From positions 1-64,000 of IMG/VR virus record IMGVR_UViG_3300046474_000239: a stretch of DNA of 64,000 nucleotides; one strand, given 5' to 3'. A model generated the notes under the pieces. The model searched no databases. It was not told the DNA's origin and was given only the letters and a program-made list of their open reading frames with translations. This document shows, piece after piece, positions 17,905 to 62,877 of the stretch. A program made the position numbers and the translations under genes. Positions within the stretch are counted from its first letter, which is position 1, and every line of letters starts with the position of its first letter. This stretch comes from a virus.

Positions 17905-17922
17905 CAGGTGATGCAGCGGCGG

Positions 17923-17950
17923 TTGACAAAGCGTCAGCCGTCGCTAGTAT
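17923..17950 (+). promoter_or_regulatory. Sigma70-type promoter
   Basis: TTGACA (17923) N16 TAGTAT (17945) in an intergenic gap. Confidence 0.6.
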
Positions 17951-17961
17951 CAAGGTGCCAG

Positions 17962-18054
17962 CGCGCTTTCGTGTGTGACCTGCTTTGAGGCAAACGACCA
18001 TGGATGGTTGAGGGGCAGGGATGATAAGTAGGCCACACACGAAAGTACGAAGGA
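17962..18054 (+). ncRNA. Structured leader or sRNA with CsrA/RsmA-type sites
   Basis: CTTTCGTGTGTG 17966-77 pairs perfectly with 18034-45; CATGGATG in a hairpin and CAGGGATG inside. Confidence 0.55.
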
Positions 18055-18072
18055 CAGTTGGAGGAGACGGCC

Positions 18073-18375
18073 ATGCAACTTGTACCCCAGATTGAAAAGC
18101 CGAAAGGCAACGTGATCGACGACATAGCATTCCGTCGCCCTTCTGTCCCCGACCAACTGCGGATCATGGCAGCCCGCCTGGATGCAGGTGAGTGGCCAGA
18201 GCCCGAGGTCATCGTAGTGGTACTGGCCTACACCGATCCTAAGCAGCAGATGGTTTGCGTGCCGGGCGGGACCGAGGACGTACACCCCTACTTCATGGCA
18301 GGCATGCTTCAGAACGCGGCGTTGACCTGCCTCGACGAAGCCTCGGCCGAACAGTTCATAGACGAAGAGCTTTAA
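18073..18375 (+). CDS. Hypothetical protein
   Basis: GGAGGAG RBS. Confidence 0.7.
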   Translation: MQLVPQIEKPKGNVIDDIAFRRPSVPDQLRIMAARLDAGEWPEPEVIVVVLAYTDPKQQMVCVPGGTEDVHPYFMAGMLQNAALTCLDEASAEQFIDEEL

Positions 18376-26744: not shown

Positions 26745-26796
26745 TGGTGCAATTGATTGCACGGGCAGTAACACTCGACCTACAAGGACCTGCTAA

Positions 26797-27498
26797 ATGG
26801 AACGCATAGATCTTCACTTGTTGAACCTCACCACACCGAAGCCGTCCGAAGATGGCGGCAGCCTGAGCACCACCTACCCACCAGGGCAGTTTGTTGAAGA
26901 CGAGTTTTACCGGCAGGGTGAAACGGGTGAGCTGATCTTGTGGGCGCCGGTAGTCGGAGCATCGACCAAGTCGACCACGCGCACCCGCACCGAACTGCGT
27001 GAGACCCTAGCCAACGGCACCACCTTCAACTGGCGGATGGATAGCGCCGACCACCATTGGCTGCAAACCTCGGTCGTCGTGCGCGAGGTGCCGGAGCCCT
27101 CGGGTGAGACTGTCGTATCGCAGATCCACGTCAAGGACTCGTCCAGGCCTATGCTCAAGGTCTCGTACGATGACGGGCGGATCGTCGTAGGCTTCCGGGC
27201 GGAGTTCGACCAGGTCGATCCAGTAGACACAACCATCCTGTCCAACGTGCCGCTGAATACCCGCCTGGCCCTATCCGTACACCTGACGGCAACCGGTCAG
27301 TTATCCGTCTCAGCCAGTTACACCCTCAACGGGGTGCGTGTAGACGGGAAAGCCCAATTAACGGCCTACCTCTCCTGGAACCCGAAGCTGTTGTACTTCA
27401 AGTTCGGCGTCTACAACCAGCAGTCGCCGAGCCCGACAACCCCGGCAGATACGGGCAGCCTGGCCACGTACTGGAAGGCCAGCATCCGCCACGAGTAG
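26797..27498 (+). CDS. Polysaccharide lyase family 7 (alginate lyase)
   Basis: All three PL7 motifs present: RTELRE, QIH, YFKFGVYNQ. Confidence 0.9.
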   Translation: MERIDLHLLNLTTPKPSEDGGSLSTTYPPGQFVEDEFYRQGETGELILWAPVVGASTKSTTRTRTELRETLANGTTFNWRMDSADHHWLQTSVVVREVPEPSGETVVSQIHVKDSSRPMLKVSYDDGRIVVGFRAEFDQVDPVDTTILSNVPLNTRLALSVHLTATGQLSVSASYTLNGVRVDGKAQLTAYLSWNPKLLYFKFGVYNQQSPSPTTPADTGSLATYWKASIRHE

Positions 27499-27562
27499 CC
27501 ATCCTGTGTAGCTTGCGGGCGGAGGGAGCCTGGACTACATTGAACTCACTAGGGGCGGTAGA

Positions 27563-27812
27563 CCTGGGTTGCAGCAGCAGTTGGAAGTAGCAAGGTGATG
27601 TGCGTCGGGCAGGGCCTGACCTCCTGTCAACGCTTCGGCGGAGACCGGCAACCGTACCACCGGGGCAACCTGGGCTGGGAACAGAAGGTACGGAATTCTT
27701 TGGGATGCACGCGGCGCGGCATGGAAGTCACGGACCCGCGAGGGGCAGATGCCGATGGCGGACAACTCGTCGCGTTCATCCCAAAGGATTCAACCACAGG
27801 CCATCCCAGGCC
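27563..27812 (+). ncRNA. Candidate ~250-nt structured non-coding RNA
   Basis: Several nested helices with UUCG and GNRA tetraloops, downstream of promoter-like CTTGCG-N18-TACATT (27512-27541). Confidence 0.65.
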
Positions 27813-27824
27813 AGGAGAGAAGCG

Positions 27825-28079
27825 ATGTCAGTAACGGCAAAGTTCAAAGGCGGCCCGCTCGACGGGCGGAAGAACACCCTCAAGGGTCGCGACAAACCAC
27901 CGGCCCAGTACAAGTGCGATGACGAGGCCAAGGCCCGTAACATGCGCGGCCACTACCGCCTGGTAACCAATACCGACAACGTGCTCACCGAGCCCGTCCA
28001 GTACGTCTGGGAAGGCCACCGGGTTGACGCAAACCATTGCACCCCGGAGACAGGCAAGTTCTGGCCTGCTACCGCCTAG
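27825..28079 (+). CDS. Small hypothetical protein (F.GGPLDG motif)
   Basis: AGGAG RBS. Confidence 0.7.
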   Translation: MSVTAKFKGGPLDGRKNTLKGRDKPPAQYKCDDEAKARNMRGHYRLVTNTDNVLTEPVQYVWEGHRVDANHCTPETGKFWPATA

Positions 28080-28080
28080 A

Positions 28081-28355
28081 CCTGTGTGGGCATGCGCGTT
28101 CCCCTATCTACTCCTGTGTGGGCACGCGCTTTCCCCTACTAGATTTACTCCAGTGTGGGCATGTGGTTTCCCCAACTACGAATCCGCTGGTGTCCAGCGC
28201 CAGGCCCGTGGCCCCGGTGTCCATGCCGGTGCTCCTGCCACTGATGATCGGGCTAGTGTCAGCGCTGCTGGTGTCCCGACCGGTGGTCATCCCGCTGGTG
28301 TCTATTAGTGCCAACACCTCTGAAGAGCCCGGTGTAGAGCCTCCGGTGTCACCCC
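28081..28355. repeat. Three tandem ~33-bp GTGTGGGCA-core repeats followed by GCTGGTGTC/CCGGTGT repeats
   Basis: Copies at 28081, 28111 and 28148; short repeats 28186-28351. Confidence 0.8.
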
Positions 28356-28361
28356 ACTGAT

Positions 28362-28390
28362 TTGACCCGTCTCTGTCAGATTGTTATAAT
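28362..28390 (+). promoter_or_regulatory. Near-consensus sigma70 promoter
   Basis: TTGACC-N17-TATAAT with extended -10 TGn. Confidence 0.8.
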
Positions 28391-37039: not shown

Positions 37040-37071
37040 GCCCTGGCTTAATCGCCGGGGCTTTCTCGTTT
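37040..37071 (+). terminator. Probable terminator closing the early array
   Basis: GCCCTGGC-ttaatc-GCCGGGGC then TTTCTCGTTT. Confidence 0.6.
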
Positions 37072-40186: not shown

Positions 40187-41631
40187 CAGTAAGGACCGGG
40201 GCGGGGCGGATAACGCCCCCTCTCACACGCCAGTAAGGAGTTACATCCCATGTCATGCCTACATGTACCCGGCCTGCTCCACACCGCACAAGCGGTCCCA
40301 TTCACCTATAACGAAGCATGCGCGGCAGAGCGTAGCATCATGGGGCGTTACACACGCACCCACCTACGCGCCACCCTGCTAGCACGCAAGGCCATACGTC
40401 GCGCCCTACGCGCTGCTATAGAGGGCGGGCACTACCTGCAAGCTGTAGAGCAGGCGCACCTGCATCACATCCTAGGCGTACAGTCGGTCATGCTGATCCG
40501 TCGCCACGCACGCACAGCCAAGTAAGGGGACTGCCATGCAAACCACCACACGCGACACCATAGCGCTAGCCATGGCAGCCTTTGAACAATCGGGCGGCTC
40601 TATTACCCAATGCCCTACAGGGGAACACAGCCCTACCTATGACGCTGCATTCAAGCGCGCACTAGACCGCGCACAGTATGGATGCGCATGCGGTTGTAAG
40701 GGGGATTGGACAGAACACAGCATGCGCCTAGGCGAGCAGGGTATACGCTAACCGCGTGCAATCAATTGCACCAACTAACGGGCGGGATATGCCGCCCTTC
40801 TTATATAGGGGCTACATCATGACTATTCATATCGTTAAGCGCAGGGCTACATGCGGGAAGAGTACTAAGCGCGTACGGGGTAGAGAGTTCGCTAGCATGC
40901 GCACACACGCAAACACACAAGTAAGGCGAGTACTCATTGCATACTCCCCTTATGACAAGATGCGGGTATGTCGGGGCGGGGACTACCAGACAAGGTACGC
41001 CATATACAGAATGTCGAATAACCAACTAATGCAGTACTAAGGGGTAGACCATGACCTATGTATTCAGAAGGCTAGACGGGCGGTTAGATTACATATACCG
41101 CAAAGGCCTACCATTCAGAGAGCGCACAGCACCATCAGTAGTCCGTCGCCTTACACGCATCACCCGCCGTATGCCTATCCACTACAGAAGCATACGCGAA
41201 GCAAAGGCACGCATTGATCAGGCGTGCAATTGATTGCACGGACTCACACGCGAAACGGGCGGATAGAATACCCTATCCACCCATAGGCAATACCCATGCC
41301 AGTACACAGAAAAATCCACCATAGAAAGTTTGGTGAAACGACAATACCGTGCGCCGGACATTTTTTATGGGTACGAGTTTTGATTCCATGCTACCTAGAT
41401 TCTTCGTCTACATTGTTTATCGTGCATCCAGCAATCACTCAGGTCATGACAAGAACATGTCAGGTATTTGAGAGAGTCACGAGAGAGACAAATACAAACT
41501 CACACCTGGCGTGCAATTGATTGCATCAGCGATGTCAAATGTCGGTGGTTAAAAATCTTCGGGGTGACCAGGGTATAATGAGCGTGCAAGGGCATAACAA
41601 TGAATGCCCAAAAATCGAAGGGGTGATCGCT

Positions 41632-44600
41632 ATGTTCCAACTAACCTACTGGGCGAACGACACTATCGTCTGCAACAAAGATCGCCAGTCAGTATTGCCC
41701 GTAGTAGGCGACACCGTTTTCCTGGACGTGCCCTCTCCTGCACACTATGTCGTGACGGCGCGCTGCATTGTCTACGCCGGGCTCGTTACACGAGTGGACC
41801 TCTTCGTAACCGTCACTCAAAAATCTAGAGGTTGAACGCTATGAGCAACTTGAACAACGCGGGGCCGACGCTCTCCTACAAACAGAAACGTGAAGTCGAA
41901 CAGCTCGTGCGTGCCAAGGCTGCCGACTACTTGCGCACTATGGAAGTGCCACCTGTCTACCTGGTCGAGGCTACGAAAGCTCAGCAGGCCCTTGCACACG
42001 AGTACGCAATCGAAGTGCGCAACGACATGGCCAACGTCCTGCACATCGAAGCCACGCACCTGTAACCGTCACTCAAAAATCCAGCGGTTGAATGGAGAAT
42101 CAAATGGACACAGACAACCCAAGCGTTCGCTACCTGCACTTCATCCTCCTTGCGCGGAGCCACGGTTTGGAGAAGGACTGGCCTACTCTCATGCTGCGCA
42201 ATCACGACAAGAGCCCGAAAGACGAGTTCGCTCGGGAGGTGTTCGAGTCGTTGGTTCTCCTGGGGCACATGACGCGAGAGGAGTTCGGAGTGTCGTTCCA
42301 TGCAGGAGTTCGCTACTCCGTCACTGAGTCTGGCAAGGAGTTCTTCCTGGCCCTCGATAGCCAAAAACCTTTAGGAGGCTGACATGCACTACCCAGCGAT
42401 TGGCCCGTTCTTCGGCTACCTCTTTATGTTGTCAGCGTTGCTGTACATCGCAAAGACATCCTGGGTGATGTACAAAGGCGACTCCGGGCGGACTGGGCAC
42501 CTTGCACTGACCTGCATCAGTCTAGGTCTCCTCCTGTTCATGACTGTCGTACCTACAGTCAGCGTCATGTCTATGCCTTCAACGTATGTTCCCTATCGCG
42601 AGTTCAACCCAACTCCAGGAGTATTTTAAATGAGCCAAAACCTTTAGGAGGTTGAAATGACTACAGAGCAACGGCTGCGTGATTGCGCGACCCAAGGAGC
42701 CTGGCCTACCTGGCACGTCACGTCTCGCGAGCTGATGGAAAGTGATGCACTGCGCCTTGAGATGTTGGACCTTCAACGGCTCGGCTACATCACCTGGCAC
42801 CAGACCTCTACCATCAACCCCTTGCTCATTGTGGATGTCACACAGGCGGGTAAGGCCCACTACTTCTCACTCGTACACGGAACACAGCCATGAACCAACA
42901 AAACCACTTCGTTACCGTCATGCACAACGGCGAGATGATCTATGACATCAGCGACGTTGAGCAGGTCCCGTCCATCGGTCACCAACTCGACTTGCGCAAC
43001 AGCGATTTGCTCAACGCCATGTACACAGTAGTCGGTGTCACTTGGGATCTTGCGGCGAGGAGCGTAGAACTTGACGTAGAACTCACCGAGATGTGTACCG
43101 ACACACCTCCACTACCGTCAACAAACTTCAAGGGGTAAATCATGCCTACCCGCATCGTCACACTCTCCCAGTTGGCACTCCTACCCAAGGGCACCTTGGT
43201 TTGCCACGTCAACGCAGACAGCGACGGAGTGGCAGAGTTCGACATCCAGGGGACACTCCAGGTCGGGCCTCCTCACCACCTGACTGGGGTAGACGAGTCG
43301 TGGGTAGAACTGACGCCTGCCTTGCCTGACGTGAAGGTCGTGGACGGGCGGGTAGAGACAGGTTTCCCTCCTACAGACTACTGCCGTAACAGCAACTACC
43401 CTCATCGCTTCGTCGCGTACTCAGACATGGACCTCAGAAGGAGTAAGTCATGATCGACTACATGCTGTTCTGGTTGGCCTTGTTCATTATCCTGGCTAGC
43501 CTGATCGCCTTCGGCTTCATCTGCCTGCTAGCGTTGGGTGCCCTCGTAACGTTCAAGGATTGGCTGGCAGATGTCCGTTGCAGGCGCGCAAGGAGAAAGG
43601 CATGAGCATGTTCCACCGCTTGACCAAACTGGCCCGCCTTGTACACTGCGCGGCCAGCGGGCACCCCGGCTACGTGAAACACCCCGGCTACGACAGGCGC
43701 GTCACTGACACCGTGACGTACGAATGCACCATCTGTGGCGAGTGCACGACGATGTACGCAGTGGGAGGGGCTCATGACCGTTTCCTTGAAAAGCACAGGT
43801 CAAAAATCGAGGGGATGAGATGATAAGCCTGTTCCACATAACTGCCCGAGTTGTACGGCGCGCTGTCATGCGCATCGGTTGCGTGTTTCGCGGGCACCAC
43901 TACTACCCGTCGTTCCACCACCGGTACAAGCAGGAAGCCTGGTACTTGGCCCGTAAGGAAGAGACCTTCACCTATGAGTGTTGCGACTGCGACACACCTT
44001 TCGTAGTAAAAGGTAAGGCAGCTCACAAAGAGTTCCTTGCAGCGAAGTGCCCGAGCTGGGGCGGCCGAGGGTCAGACAGCCAGGGCTACAAATCTGACAC
44101 CGAAAATTCCGCAGGAGAATGAAGATGTATTGCACACCTCATAGCGTCATCCATATGCAGGAGCGGGAGAACGGTATCGACTCCGCCGTCCACGATCTGA
44201 TCATCCTGCACATCCGCAGCTCCCAGGTGATCGAGGGTGGCCCTCTCTACGTCGCCACGGACCTCGACGGGCTGAACAGCGTGATGGTCTGCCTGGCTTC
44301 TCACCATCGCCCAGGTAAGAACACCCTGTTCAATCGTTGCAGGCCCACACCGTCTGCGGCAGCCATTGAATGGTGCAAGTTCCAGAACGTAGAAGCCGAC
44401 TTCATCTACCACACGGGCGGATACGTCGACGGCGACAGACCGATCCCTGAGATCATCCCAAGCGGCGAACGTCGTTCCTGGGTTCCTCAATGGGAGGAGG
44501 GTCTCCCAGAGACGCGGAAGGACGTTCTCCTGGAGCTGCTGACCAAGGGCGAGGCGGTCATCACCCCCAAGTGCACTTGCGGCGAGCGCGACCACTTCGA

Positions 44601-52355: not shown

Positions 52356-55300
52356 ATGAACCCAGGAAACGGCTTTGTCCAGATTCGTTACGGCCTCGTA
52401 GAGCCGGGCGATAAGATCTACATCCCCACCATCGGCTCCCACGTAGAAGTGGAACAGGACTCGATTTTCCAGGGTTCCTCGGTTGCCGCCCACAAAGCGG
52501 TTTGGCGTGCGTCCCACAGGGTCAACGTCTCCCCCTCCTTTGCCAGCTCCACGGAGCGCTGCGACCACGTCAGCGAGCTGGACCATTGCGTTCTGCGCCA
52601 GGACGGCTACTACGACCTGCACCGCGTCGTGGTTGGCAAGGACAACGAGTTCGTCTACCTCCGCCCGGTGGCGCAGGCAGGGGCCTCGGGCCGGACCAGC
52701 ACCACCACCAACAAGGTCTGCCGCCGCACTGGCAAGGCCTGGAAGTGGGACGAGACGGGCTGGACCGGCATGCCGGGCACCGAGCTGCGGGCGGAGGGAG
52801 AGATAGGTTTCCGCGTGAGCGCCCCTACCGCAGACCCAGTACGCAGCTCCGCGTTTTACGGTGATTAAGATGACAGAACTTGAGTTTCGTAGGGTCTACG
52901 ACTTCAGGCTGGCTTACGACCTCCTGATGGGCTTTACAGCCCCGCGTATTTCAGGGTTTGGAGACCAAGACACCGCGCCAGACACTGACTCGGTGTTCTA
53001 CACCCAAGCGAGGGATCGCCTTGTATGGCTCTTACTATCGCCTTACGGCCTTACGGTAAGAACAAGCCACCTAGCATTGAGAGAGCTTTACGACTTGTAC
53101 GACGAAGCGTTACTGGCTGAGCTGCTCGTGCTGCGGGACATAGCACGGGAGGCTGCAAGACTGCGCCGCCAGGAGCGTGAAGAAATCACACCTGGTCGAC
53201 CCTTCGCCCCGCCCCAGTCGAGCCCGGACTTCCGCAGGGTGGACCAGCAGCGCCGGGAGGAAAACAGGCAGCTCCGGGCGGAGGTAGCCCGCACCCGCCG
53301 AGCCGCAGACCCACCCCAGATCCGCAGAGGTAACGAGCTGCCTACACGCGGTCAACCCGTACCACCTGTACCCGTCGAGGCGGTAGACGCTGACTACGTC
53401 AGCCCGCGCACCAGGGCCGGGCGGATAGCTCGCATTAACAGGCAGATCAACTCCCTGGAGCAGGAGCACGAGGAGGACTACTTGCTACCTCCAGCAGAGC
53501 GCGCTCGCCGGGCGGGCGAGATGGTGGACCGATTGACCGAGTTTGCTCAGCAGCTCGAAGACCTGGGACACGACAGCAGCAAGATGAGGAAGAAACAGTC
53601 CAAGACCAAGAAGGTGACCGAGAGGACCAAACCTGAACCGAAACCAAAGGTCATCAAACGTCGACTCACTGTCGGCAAGAAACGTCCATCAGTGCCGCCG
53701 CACCAAGAGTGACCGTGCGGTAAGCTGAACCCATAACCACGAGGAGCAACACCATGCCAGTAATGAACAACATCTCCGACGTGCTGACCTTCGTAGGCAG
53801 CCAGGACGCCCGCGCCGTGCCGATCAAGTTGCCTATCGGTTTCAACGAATGGAGCGAGGCCAGGAAGCAGCTCGAAGAAGACAACGCGGAGTTTTTCACC
53901 ACCGCCGACCCGGTCCCGGTTGACGCCCAGATTTGCGCGCTGTGGACCGAGAACGGCAAGCGCGGCTTCATGCTGGTCCAGGAAAACCCAAAGCGCTACA
54001 TCTGCACCAACTGGCTGAAGAACCTGGTACAGCGCCCGGTAGAAGCCCCGATCCCTAACCTGATGCGTCACCAGATGCGCCAGGCCTTCAAAGGGAGCAA
54101 GTGATGGATAAGCCAGACAATGCGGTCTTCGAGACCTTGGGTCAGGCCTTCTCCACGGTGGCCACCTGGTTCATCGACTTCCGCCACCAGCACGTACACG
54201 CGGGGCTCAGCCTGGTAAACCAGGGCGATGCCTCGGAAGGACAGCTCGTGCACTGGGTCTGCGTCGAGCACTCGGACAAGATCCTGTACACCATCGCCCG
54301 CATTACGCCGATCAGCATGCCGCCGCTCGACGGGAGGGAGCGCTGGAACTGGCGAGTGGAGTTCCGTCAGCCCGGCGAGATCATCTCTCTGGTATTCGAT
54401 AACTACGCCCGCGCCTGCGGCCGGGAGCGGTACACCCGCAACGAGGCTATCCAGGCCTTCGAGGACCACAACCAGGAGTTCCACCCAGGTGCAACGCTTA
54501 GTTTCACCGCCTCTGCACCGGGGCGCACAGTGGTACGGCGGAAAGCTGACGAAGGGGCATGGCAGGTGGTTTGCGGGGTGATCCTCGACGAAGCCGTCAT
54601 CCAAGGCCTCAAGATAACCAAGCACCCCCAGCGCGGGATCTTCGAGAAGGCCTTTGGCATCGACATCATAGGGTGAACCATGCAAGCGATTAAGCGAGCG
54701 TTGCAGCGTCTCAGGCTGGCCCTGGCGCCGGTCAAGCCTGTGAACAAGGTGGGCAAGCTGGGCCTGTGGGAGCGGGGCGAGGTGATGGACTACGGGGACT
54801 GCTTCGTAGCCCACATCACGGTCAATGGCACCCCAGGGGCGGTTATGGTGCGAGCCCCCACCAAGGCCTCAGCCGCAGCCCGCCGCGACCTGATAGTCCA
54901 GACGATGATGCAGGAATCCCGCGAAGAGGCGGCGGTGCAATTGATTGCACGAACCTCCGGCGACGAGACCGTAAACCTGGTGAAGTCAAGTCAGTGAACA
55001 TGGGCGCGCGGGCGTCTATTAGGTAAACTTCTTGGTATGTTCACCACAACAATTCAGAGGAAAGACCATGGACCCCAAGGCCCGTCTTGAGAAGAACTTC
55101 GCATCTGCCATCGTGGGGATGATGGACCGCAGCTACTTTCCATCCACCCTGCTTTGGGTAGAAACCAACAACCCTCGCGTGCGCGGCGTCGACCGGGACT
55201 GGCAAGTCTTCCTGCATGGCGTGGAGAACGGGGCCAAGGCCTCCCTTGAGCGGATACAGCCCACGATTGAGCGTGGCGAAGACGCCGTTGTAAAGTGCTT

Positions 55301-61270: not shown

Positions 61271-62877
61271 GCACCCTCAGTTCCACTCGACGCATCACCC
61301 GGTCCCGTTTGCGCGGCAGCCCGGAGGTAGAGGCCAGGTCCACTATCATCCAGGTTCAGCGGGCGGAGTCCGACACCTCCCAACAACTTGAGTACATCGA
61401 CGAGTTCGCTCTGGCCTATGGCTCGGGTGACTTCATCCTCCCACCTCCCTATGCCATCCACCGCCTGTTCGAGGTAATCGAGAACTCGAACGCATTGCGT
61501 CCGTGCATTGACGCCTACGTGACCAACGTGGTCCGCCCAGGCTGGGAGATCGCACCGATCCGCCGCGATGCAAAGATCAACGAAGGTGAGAAGGCCGAGA
61601 CCCAGTCCTTTCTGGAGAACGCCAACGCCGAAGAAGATCTGCCGACCGTTATGGCCAAGGTGATCCGCGACCGCGAGTCGGTAGGCTTCGGCTTCCTGGA
61701 AGTGATCCGCGACGTGTCCAGCGAGCTGTCCCTCCTGCGCCACGCACCAGCGATCATCACCCGGCTGTGCCCGAAGCATAAGACTGAGGTCCTGGTCGAA
61801 TACACCATCCCTCGTGGTCGCCGTGTCAGCACCGTGAAAGAGTTACGCAAGTTCCGCCGCTTCCAGCAGCGCGTTATGGGTGCGGTCGTGTACTTCAAAG
61901 AGTTCGGTGACCCTCGCGACATGAACCGGAAGACTGGCCTGTTCCCGGAAGACGCGGGCTATGAGCCAGGCAACAGTGCCACCGAGATCATCCACTTCAA
62001 GCTGCCGTCGAATGAACCCTACGGCGTGCCTCGGTGGATCAACCAGTTGCCTTCGATCATTGGCAGCCGGGAGTCGGAAGAAGTGAACATGCGCTACTTC
62101 CAGGACAACACCGTGCCACCGATGATGCTGACGGTCGCGGGCGGCAAGCTGACGAACCAGTCCTACAAAGAGCTGACCAACATGCTCTCCAAAGGCGACG
62201 TAGGTAAGAACCGCCAGAACCGCATCATGTTGGTGGAAGCAGTAGGCGTCAGCGACAGCATGGACGGCAACGGCACCCCGGTGCAGCTCAAAGTCGAGAA
62301 GCTGACCGACTCCCGCCAAAGCGATGCACTGTTCAAAGAGTACGACCAAGCCAACATGGCCAAAGTTCGGTCGGCCTGGCGTCTTGGTTCCGTCCTGGTC
62401 GGCATGGGCGCCGACGCTAACTATGCGAACTCCCAAGTGGCTGTAGCACTCGCGGAGTCCCAAGTATTCGGCCCTGACCGGTCGGAGCTGGACGAGATCC
62501 TGAACAAGAAGGTCTTCATCGGTGCCAACGGCATGAAGATGAAGTCTGTCCGCATCGTCAGCCGCGTACCCGCGATCACCTCGCCGGAGACCACCATCAA
62601 GGCGTTGACCGCGCTGAACGTGATGGGCGCCGTGACCCCACGCACCGCAGTAGAGTCGGCGAACACCTTCCTGCAAGCCGAGCTGCCTGAGTACCCACAA
62701 CCGGGCGAAGCAGGCTACCAAGAGTGGATGGACCAACCTCTCCAGTTGACTACCGGGGCGGCCAAGACCCACGACGAACAGGCTGCCAAGGACCAGGAAG
62801 CGAAGGACCTCGAAGCCAGTGGCGACACGAGCCTCAAGCAGCCTGAACATGGCAAGGAAGGGGAGATTCTCAAATGA
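61267..62877 (+). CDS. Portal protein (PBSX/XkdE-like)
   Basis: I.PPY....L, D.E..G.GFLEV.R, EIIHFK, YGVPRW, N..YF.....P, D..F..Y. Confidence 0.85.
   Translation: MSTLSSTRRITRSRLRGSPEVEARSTIIQVQRAESDTSQQLEYIDEFALAYGSGDFILPPPYAIHRLFEVIENSNALRPCIDAYVTNVVRPGWEIAPIRRDAKINEGEKAETQSFLENANAEEDLPTVMAKVIRDRESVGFGFLEVIRDVSSELSLLRHAPAIITRLCPKHKTEVLVEYTIPRGRRVSTVKELRKFRRFQQRVMGAVVYFKEFGDPRDMNRKTGLFPEDAGYEPGNSATEIIHFKLPSNEPYGVPRWINQLPSIIGSRESEEVNMRYFQDNTVPPMMLTVAGGKLTNQSYKELTNMLSKGDVGKNRQNRIMLVEAVGVSDSMDGNGTPVQLKVEKLTDSRQSDALFKEYDQANMAKVRSAWRLGSVLVGMGADANYANSQVAVALAESQVFGPDRSELDEILNKKVFIGANGMKMKSVRIVSRVPAITSPETTIKALTALNVMGAVTPRTAVESANTFLQAELPEYPQPGEAGYQEWMDQPLQLTTGAAKTHDEQAAKDQEAKDLEASGDTSLKQPEHGKEGEILK

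Follow-up and report, generated by a model that had tools for sequence, protein, structure and literature searches.

The gap between the PL7 alginate lyase gene (26797-27498) and the early region of the phage studied here raises a simple question: is it a spacer, a short gene or an RNA, and if it is an RNA, what might it do? The source record from IMG/VR is complete (104,448 bp, with terminal repeats), and its first 64 kb, called the window below, were analysed; coordinates without a further label refer to this window. With a GC content of 59%, the phage encodes its genes on the + strand. Upstream of the gap are found the genes of a collagen-repeat fibre protein, a DUF285/LRR protein and the alginate lyase, downstream of it small ORFs without assigned function, each preceded by a copy of a non-canonical promoter. 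The gap itself is placed at the edge of a repeat-flanked 9.5-kb block. A preliminary description, made from the sequence alone, had proposed that a structured RNA is encoded here. This observation is confirmed and the interpretation given with it is supported with three corrections. A non-coding stretch of roughly 280 bases very probably folds here into a conserved, structured RNA that is read from the + strand.

Homologues of the element in related phages

Relatives of the phage were identified in IMG/VR by means of the large terminase, and homologues of the element were then sought by syntenic DNA matches, by a motif search and with a covariance model (R1). An uncultured phage, G002 (94.9-kb IMG/VR record, terminase identity 75%), could be matched at the syntenic position by short stretches of collinear DNA, and its RNA element spans L040:4113-4395. 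The motif search revealed another copy in the P. aeruginosa phage SM1 (Pseudomonas phage SM1, NC_041877, genus Samunavirus; G003 in our set), whose RNA region is 98-100% identical in PaMx31, FBPa45, PA_L9 and UF_RH6. These SM1-like variants contribute hardly any further differences within the RNA, which none of the five GenBank records annotates. With R1 the three copies scored 102.8, 92.5 and 80 bits. The proteins on both sides of the RNA are non-homologous between this phage and G002, and the genes right after it differ as well: an 84-aa protein without family in this phage and, in the others, a YpsA/SLOG protein and a 275-aa protein without family. Consequently, the non-coding element is the conserved feature at this position.

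When R1 was applied to the genomes of the relatives and to loci from motif scans of IMG/VR, JGI metagenomes and GTDB genomes, nothing else exceeded 17 bits (E ~0.3 or worse). The metagenome motif-scan matches, inspected by eye, resembled coding or ribosomal-RNA sequence. A blastn search of GenBank phages with the region of this phage and that of G002 gave nothing useful, and IMG/VR searches anchored on the 84-aa ORF and on the alginate lyase found no relatives. Neither R1 nor a hand-written junction descriptor matched in four further phages with a terminase identity of 58% or lower (G004, G005, G007 and G008), and the syntenic gaps of such distant relatives look like small ORFs. A PhoH-anchored search yielded five contigs of 95-105 kb from Logan and ENA (P0002, P0009-P0011 and P0014) that encode close PhoH relatives, and the IMG/VR contigs of close relatives stop before the RNA locus. 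The BHU phage records, in which the region is apparently absent, were left out since their CDSs lie exactly 100 nt apart, which is likely an assembly artefact. As far as can be seen from these sequences, the RNA appears to be rare and restricted to a small clade of ~93-104-kb Pseudomonas-type siphophages that comprises this phage, G002 and the SM1-like members of Samunavirus.

A different arrangement of RNA genes was seen at 41630-41990 of G007. There, tRNA-Met, tRNA-Glu and tRNA-Leu are encoded about as far 3' of the terminase gene, and a hairpin whose stem exceeds 20 bp separates them from the first gene, without the 90-nt core described below.

Helices, covariation and strand

All eight helices listed in the preliminary description were found again, 27563-71/27802-10 with one mismatch. 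The existence of a structured RNA domain therefore stands, but not its picture as one domain closed by long-range helices between the 5' and the 3' end. The pairings 27563-71/27802-10 and 27613-18/27797-802 are present here and have no counterpart in the homologues; moreover, the latter competes with the conserved local hairpin H1, since 27613-18 lies mostly within the 3' strand of H1. The conserved unit is instead a 90-nt core of five helices (27604-27693), followed by a long hairpin (27693-27791).

The core begins with H1 (27604-27620, + strand), a 7-bp hairpin with the loop AGG and the invariant GGGCAG.GCC, in which two pairs covary and 95% of the cells of the alignment are paired. H2 (27623-27648) consists of a CC/GG clamp, an invariant GUC/GAC base and a variable tip, as judged from the alignment and from single-sequence folds; the tip CGC-UUCG-GCG of this phage is swapped for AGU-UUAG-ACU in G002 and for CC-UUCG-GG in SM1. 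According to the alignment, H2 is followed by a GGCAA linker, the CAA of which occupies 27649-27651. A three-way junction comes next (27652-27693), formed by H3 (27652-58/27687-93), H4 (27660-27673, with a GCAA loop) and H5 (27675-27684, CUG-GGAA-CAG, then AA). The long hairpin is irregular, with a stem of 15 + 8 bp, then 6 bp, and an apical CCC-GCGA-GGG. If compared with shuffled sequences, the folding energy of the whole 291 nt gave z = -1.98 on the + strand and -1.03 on the - strand. For the core alone z was -2.19, with a minimum-energy structure that makes up 75% of the ensemble, and for the long hairpin it was -4.82, with 0 of 200 shuffles folding as well.

This hairpin is the top inverted repeat located in non-coding DNA of the 64-kb window, which contains only two strong non-coding long hairpins (17966-18045 and 27693-27791). 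The other one lies in a non-coding gap as well (17905-18100; arms 17966-85/18026-45; fold z = -5.35), directly 3' of the PhoH gene, with a promoter-like site ahead of it.

The cores of the three phages share a mean column identity of 72% and, each folded alone, adopt the same five-helix architecture. Across the copies H1 has 6-7 bp, H3 has 7 bp and H4 is variable, while H5 always reads CUG-GNRA-CAG, then AA; H5 plus AAGG is near-invariant (loop GGAA or GAAA). On the proposed structure 89% of the cells are paired, compared to 31-45% after shifting the partners by 1-3 columns. Both sides are changed in nine pairs, against 3.9 in shuffled alignments (1 of 500 shuffles reached 9), and five of these nine fall into H3, where 5 of 7 pairs show compensatory changes and pairing is 100% (CCGUACC/GGUACGG, CCUCUCC/GGGGAGG and GGCCACC/GGUGGCC in the three phages). 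RNAalifold recovered H1, H2, H3 and H5 unaided from the alignment and placed H4 one column off in register. In every copy a long hairpin of unrelated sequence is found directly after H3 (23 bp with a 1x1 loop here, 13 bp in G002 and ~24 bp in SM1). Two other phage lineages thus keep the internal helices by way of compensatory changes. Nevertheless, the covariation evidence, though real, is thin, because only three divergent sequences are available. These amount to two independent contrasts, too few for significance of the R-scape type, and H5 as well as much of H1 and H2 (the inner pairs) is invariant, so covariation says nothing about them.

The structure might also act at the level of DNA, as a cruciform or single-stranded origin, an injection stop or a packaging signal. 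Its position at the boundary of the repeat-flanked 9.5-kb block and the long inverted repeat would fit such a role. However, the stems 27693-707/27777-91 and 27709-16/27768-75 each contain one G-T pair, which pairs as G-U on the + strand only and becomes C-A on the minus strand, and the loops are of the UUCG and GNRA type. In agreement with the strand proposed in the preliminary description, the consensus fold is also better on the + strand (-30.2 kcal/mol, of which covariation -3.7) than on the - strand (-23.2 and -1.2, respectively). Together with the conserved promoter directly upstream, these points make a DNA-level element very improbable.

Promoter, transcript and coding potential

An early-class promoter precedes the RNA on the + strand (27506-27541), with the -35 element TTGCGG (27513-27518), a 17-nt spacer and the -10 element TACATT (27536-27541). 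It belongs to a repeated class, as had been noticed before: the 17-mer GTGTAGCTTGCGGGCGG at 27506-27522 is found again in the promoter that precedes 33082, and the -10 region CTACATT aligns with CTATGCT, CTATTCT and CTATAGT of the early cassettes. In a scan for the sigma-70 consensus this promoter was too weak and remained under the threshold. The alignment with G002 revealed that the upstream block CCTGTGTA..TTGC..ACTCAC is kept there, with an intrinsic terminator immediately upstream of it, and no promoter of this phage's type is found directly upstream of the SM1 copy. Judged from the promoter model, the transcript probably starts near 27548 and reads on into the ORF at 27825. It would begin with an apparently unstructured 5' leader (27548-27603, + strand; fold z = +1.25) that has the blocks GGTAGA and TTGCAG in common with G002. 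Behind the hairpin, a 3' tail (27792-27824) contains the conserved CCACA (27794-27798) and the Shine-Dalgarno sequence AGGAGAG (27813-27819); CCACA comes after the long hairpin in all three phages and is followed by a Shine-Dalgarno sequence and a start codon.

A terminator scan detected none between the RNA and the ORF at 27825. The first strong terminator-like site downstream is found at 37040 (37040-37061), with weaker ones listed earlier; it resembles an intrinsic terminator, ends the 9.5-kb block and adjoins a repeat-rich locus at 37.3 kb. Consequently, the RNA heads a unit of ~9.5 kb.

Two ORFs, 27595-27834 and 27600-28079, are open across the RNA and had been named in the preliminary description as possible rival products. 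That the stretch is protein-coding, or else a chance fold of GC-rich DNA, could be argued from these two open frames and from the z-score of the whole region, which is only about -2. However, GC by codon position is 0.69/0.68/0.56 in the frame of the longer ORF over 27600-27824 and 0.66/0.54/0.68 in ORF 27595-27834, whereas most genes of this phage that were checked show values of ~0.57/0.42-0.46/0.78-0.83. At the protein level the long ORF is homologous only to G002, and only from residue 76 onwards, which is ATG 27825 behind AGGAGAG. Furthermore, the homologous regions contain no + strand ORF of at least 70 aa in G002 or of at least 50 aa in SM1, and the core alignment has indels of 4 and 14 nt inside conserved blocks. 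A chance fold is excluded by conservation and covariation. We thus consider either version scarcely credible. On codon composition and homology, the RNA stretch is judged to be non-coding and the real gene to start at ATG 27825.

This first downstream gene (27825-28079, + strand, 84 aa) has a GC by codon position of 0.60/0.46/0.79, like real genes, and its homology to G002 starts exactly at the ATG; a Pfam search with the protein found no family. The homologue in G002 (62321-62464, 48% over 48 aa) is encoded ~4 kb upstream of the G002 RNA and not 3' of it. Therefore, the first gene behind the RNA is interchangeable.

The RNA represents a new family that was not previously described. None of the 4227 models of Rfam 15 (among them SRP, 6S, RNase P, tmRNA, riboswitches, ribozymes and phage motifs) matched the whole window at the gathering threshold, and at E<=10 the region 27300-28200 gave only generic long-hairpin miRNA models with 14-17 bits. 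This bears out the earlier statement that no family can be assigned. The loose likeness to SRP helix 8 suggested at the same time is not supported: no SRP model matched, and the apical sequence concerned (27728-27748) is not conserved in G002 or SM1. A sponge for RsmA/CsrA was considered as well and rejected, as a rough hand count gave 9 GGA motifs in ~290 nt compared to ~7 expected and thus no enrichment.

Relation to known RNAs and possible function

The SM1 copy occurs in a 1.4-kb gap (53,440-54,856 of NC_041877) for which the RefSeq record annotates no feature. We found there, in this order, a tRNA-Arg(TCT), a permuted two-piece tmRNA (RF04321, 118.6 bits; beta_tmRNA, 111.2 bits; tag ANDTSFDVRLAA), a module of junction and hairpin, and then the true homologue of the RNA. 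The module (L043:1259-1396) directly follows the tmRNA tag region. It forms a three-way junction with H3 CCUCCCC/GGGGAGG, carries GGAACAGAAAGG, which is near-identical to GGAACAGAAGGGGAGG of G002, and ends in a perfect 26-bp hairpin (fold z = -6.96). R1 gave it only 7.5 bits in a misaligned match, and the junction-only model R2 did not list it at E<=10. Because R2 did not detect the module, its homology to the RNA rests only on the shared block of 16-17 nt and on the architecture. Kinship of the two, with the G002 junction especially close, is likely from these sequence likenesses, but unproven. The unannotated permuted tmRNA of Samunavirus thus adjoins the RNA and ties it to a phage RNA-gene cluster.

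Some details of this cluster were noted in passing. The tRNA-Arg(TCT) and the permuted tmRNA (L043:814-1316, about 53,959-54,461 of NC_041877) also occur in the relatives of SM1, of which FBPa45 annotates the tRNA alone; the UF_RH6 paper likewise mentions only the tRNA. UF_RH6 has an 11-nt deletion that lies only in the apical loop of the hairpin of the post-tmRNA module.

The RNA could be viewed as what remains of a phage two-piece tmRNA (RF04321 / RF01850), or as an accessory domain derived from one: junction and long hairpin would have arisen by duplication of the 3' part of its coding piece and would have outlasted the tmRNA itself. The immediate neighbourhood in SM1, the similar module of junction and hairpin and the shared block GGAACAGAA(A)GGGGAGG are consistent with such a descent. 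However, besides the failure of both models to connect the module with the RNA, no tRNA-like domain with an acceptor stem ending in CCA, a T-arm and G3-U70 was found: ARAGORN reported none in the window or in the whole genome, and no T-arm or acceptor motif was present. The leaders of the three homologues contain no conserved short frame for a tmRNA tag (hydrophobic, ..AA stop), with the SM1 tmRNA giving ANDTSFDVRLAA as positive control, and the RNA matched no tmRNA model. In addition, ARAGORN, tmRNA models and a motif search found no tRNA, tmRNA, T-arm or acceptor piece anywhere in this phage or G002. Consequently, the RNA is not part of a tmRNA, and its origin as a relic of one appears quite improbable.

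Other phage RNAs allow further comparison. The RNase III hairpins of the T7 early region (R0.3, R0.5, R1 and others) are long and irregular and lie in non-coding gaps of the transcript made by the host polymerase. They are not terminators, the next gene comes after them, and their cleavage creates and protects 3' ends and stabilises the upstream RNA. The hairpin described here is alike in that it lacks a U-tract, lies in a non-coding gap and would be passed by continuing transcription. In contrast, the conserved 90-nt core of five helices before it is absent in T7. With regard to the roughly two turns of dsRNA of an RNase III substrate, the stems of this phage (23 bp) and SM1 are long enough, whereas the 13 bp of G002 are not. 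The put RNAs of phage HK022 and other promoter-proximal antitermination RNAs are structured, lie just 3' of an early promoter and are indifferent to the gene that follows. The RNA of this phage likewise lies just downstream of an early promoter and is followed by varying genes; however, the put RNAs are built of two stem-loops in ~70 nt and do not resemble it. There is also little evident need for antitermination, because the first strong terminator-like site is located as far downstream as 37040, though weaker ones precede it. Finally, the pRNA of phi29 is phage-encoded, has ~170 nt and a three-way junction and is made from an early promoter. It shares with the RNA described here the junction behind an early promoter, yet no match in sequence or structure and no Rfam match in the region was found, and this phage encodes an ordinary large terminase.

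What the RNA might do has to be derived from its context. Among the changing protein genes around it, it is the one element that persists where the early region begins, and this suggests a role in the infection programme and not in connection with a single gene. We favour, as a tentative reading that we would not quite call probable, an early stable RNA of ~245 nt that is processed or protected at the long hairpin. Host RNA polymerase would start at the early-class promoter near 27548 and would transcribe in turn the open leader of ~55 nt, the core with H1, H2, GGCAA and a three-way junction containing the near-invariant purine-rich CUGGRAACAGAAGG, and the long GC-rich hairpin. It would then read on without termination into whichever gene is first. 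The core might serve as a folded platform that is bound by a conserved protein or RNA partner; a specific partner is suggested because unpaired and junction bases are near-invariant. The long hairpin may make or shield the 3' end, either by double-strand-specific cleavage or as a block to exonucleases, and as a result a stable RNA could build up early during readthrough. Stability is suggested because the SM1 copy sits among tRNA and tmRNA genes. Several observations speak against this model: the 13-bp stem of G002 is short for RNase III, the SM1 copy has no promoter of this phage's type directly before it, and a ribosome-binding site lies within 10-35 nt 3' of every copy, which equally fits a cis-acting leader.

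Such a leader is the main rival. It would act purely in cis, gating translation or stability of the first early ORF, for example by a second pairing scheme in which the ribosome-binding site is masked and which may respond to a ligand or host factor. Besides the Shine-Dalgarno sequence and start codon directly after every copy, the H1-H2 segment is complementary to the Shine-Dalgarno region in the same alignment columns in two of the three phages (CUCCUG at 27621-26 with CAGGAG at 27812-17 in this phage; CUCUGUCU with AGACAGAG in SM1). However, G002 lacks this complementarity at that position, the downstream genes are unrelated, neither a terminator nor a terminator/antiterminator pair was found, and no riboswitch model of Rfam matched. 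A cis-acting leader is thus possible, though we regard it as rather unlikely.

Going beyond the early stable RNA favoured above, one might speculate that the element represents a new class of trans-acting phage RNA, evolutionarily tied to the 3' domain of two-piece tmRNA. During takeover such an RNA would contact the translation machinery or an RNA-binding factor of the host by means of its purine-rich, near-invariant junction (AAC-AGA-AGG, an ARN-type repeat). In another form of this idea, the element would be a new sensor RNA that controls entry into the early programme. We consider this proposal unlikely in either form. Since the RNA is present in cultured lytic phages of P. aeruginosa, it is directly accessible to experiment; one of these phages, PA_L9, is reportedly named in a phage-therapy case report.

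Further features of the early region were observed next to the RNA. Three tandem copies of CCTGTGTGGGCATG..CCCCTA occur after the first ORF 3' of the RNA, both in the window (28076-28175) and in G002 (L040:4885-4985), and in the window they are followed by a strong sigma-70 promoter (TTGACC-17-TATAAT with TG, 28362-28390). In addition, the palindrome TGCAAT(C/T)(A/G)ATTGCA is found at 23 sites in the window (for example at 26748, 28770 and 37008) and at 31 in the whole genome; the corresponding numbers are 22 in G002, 21 in G004, 23 in G005, 7 in G007 and 0 in both SM1 and G008.
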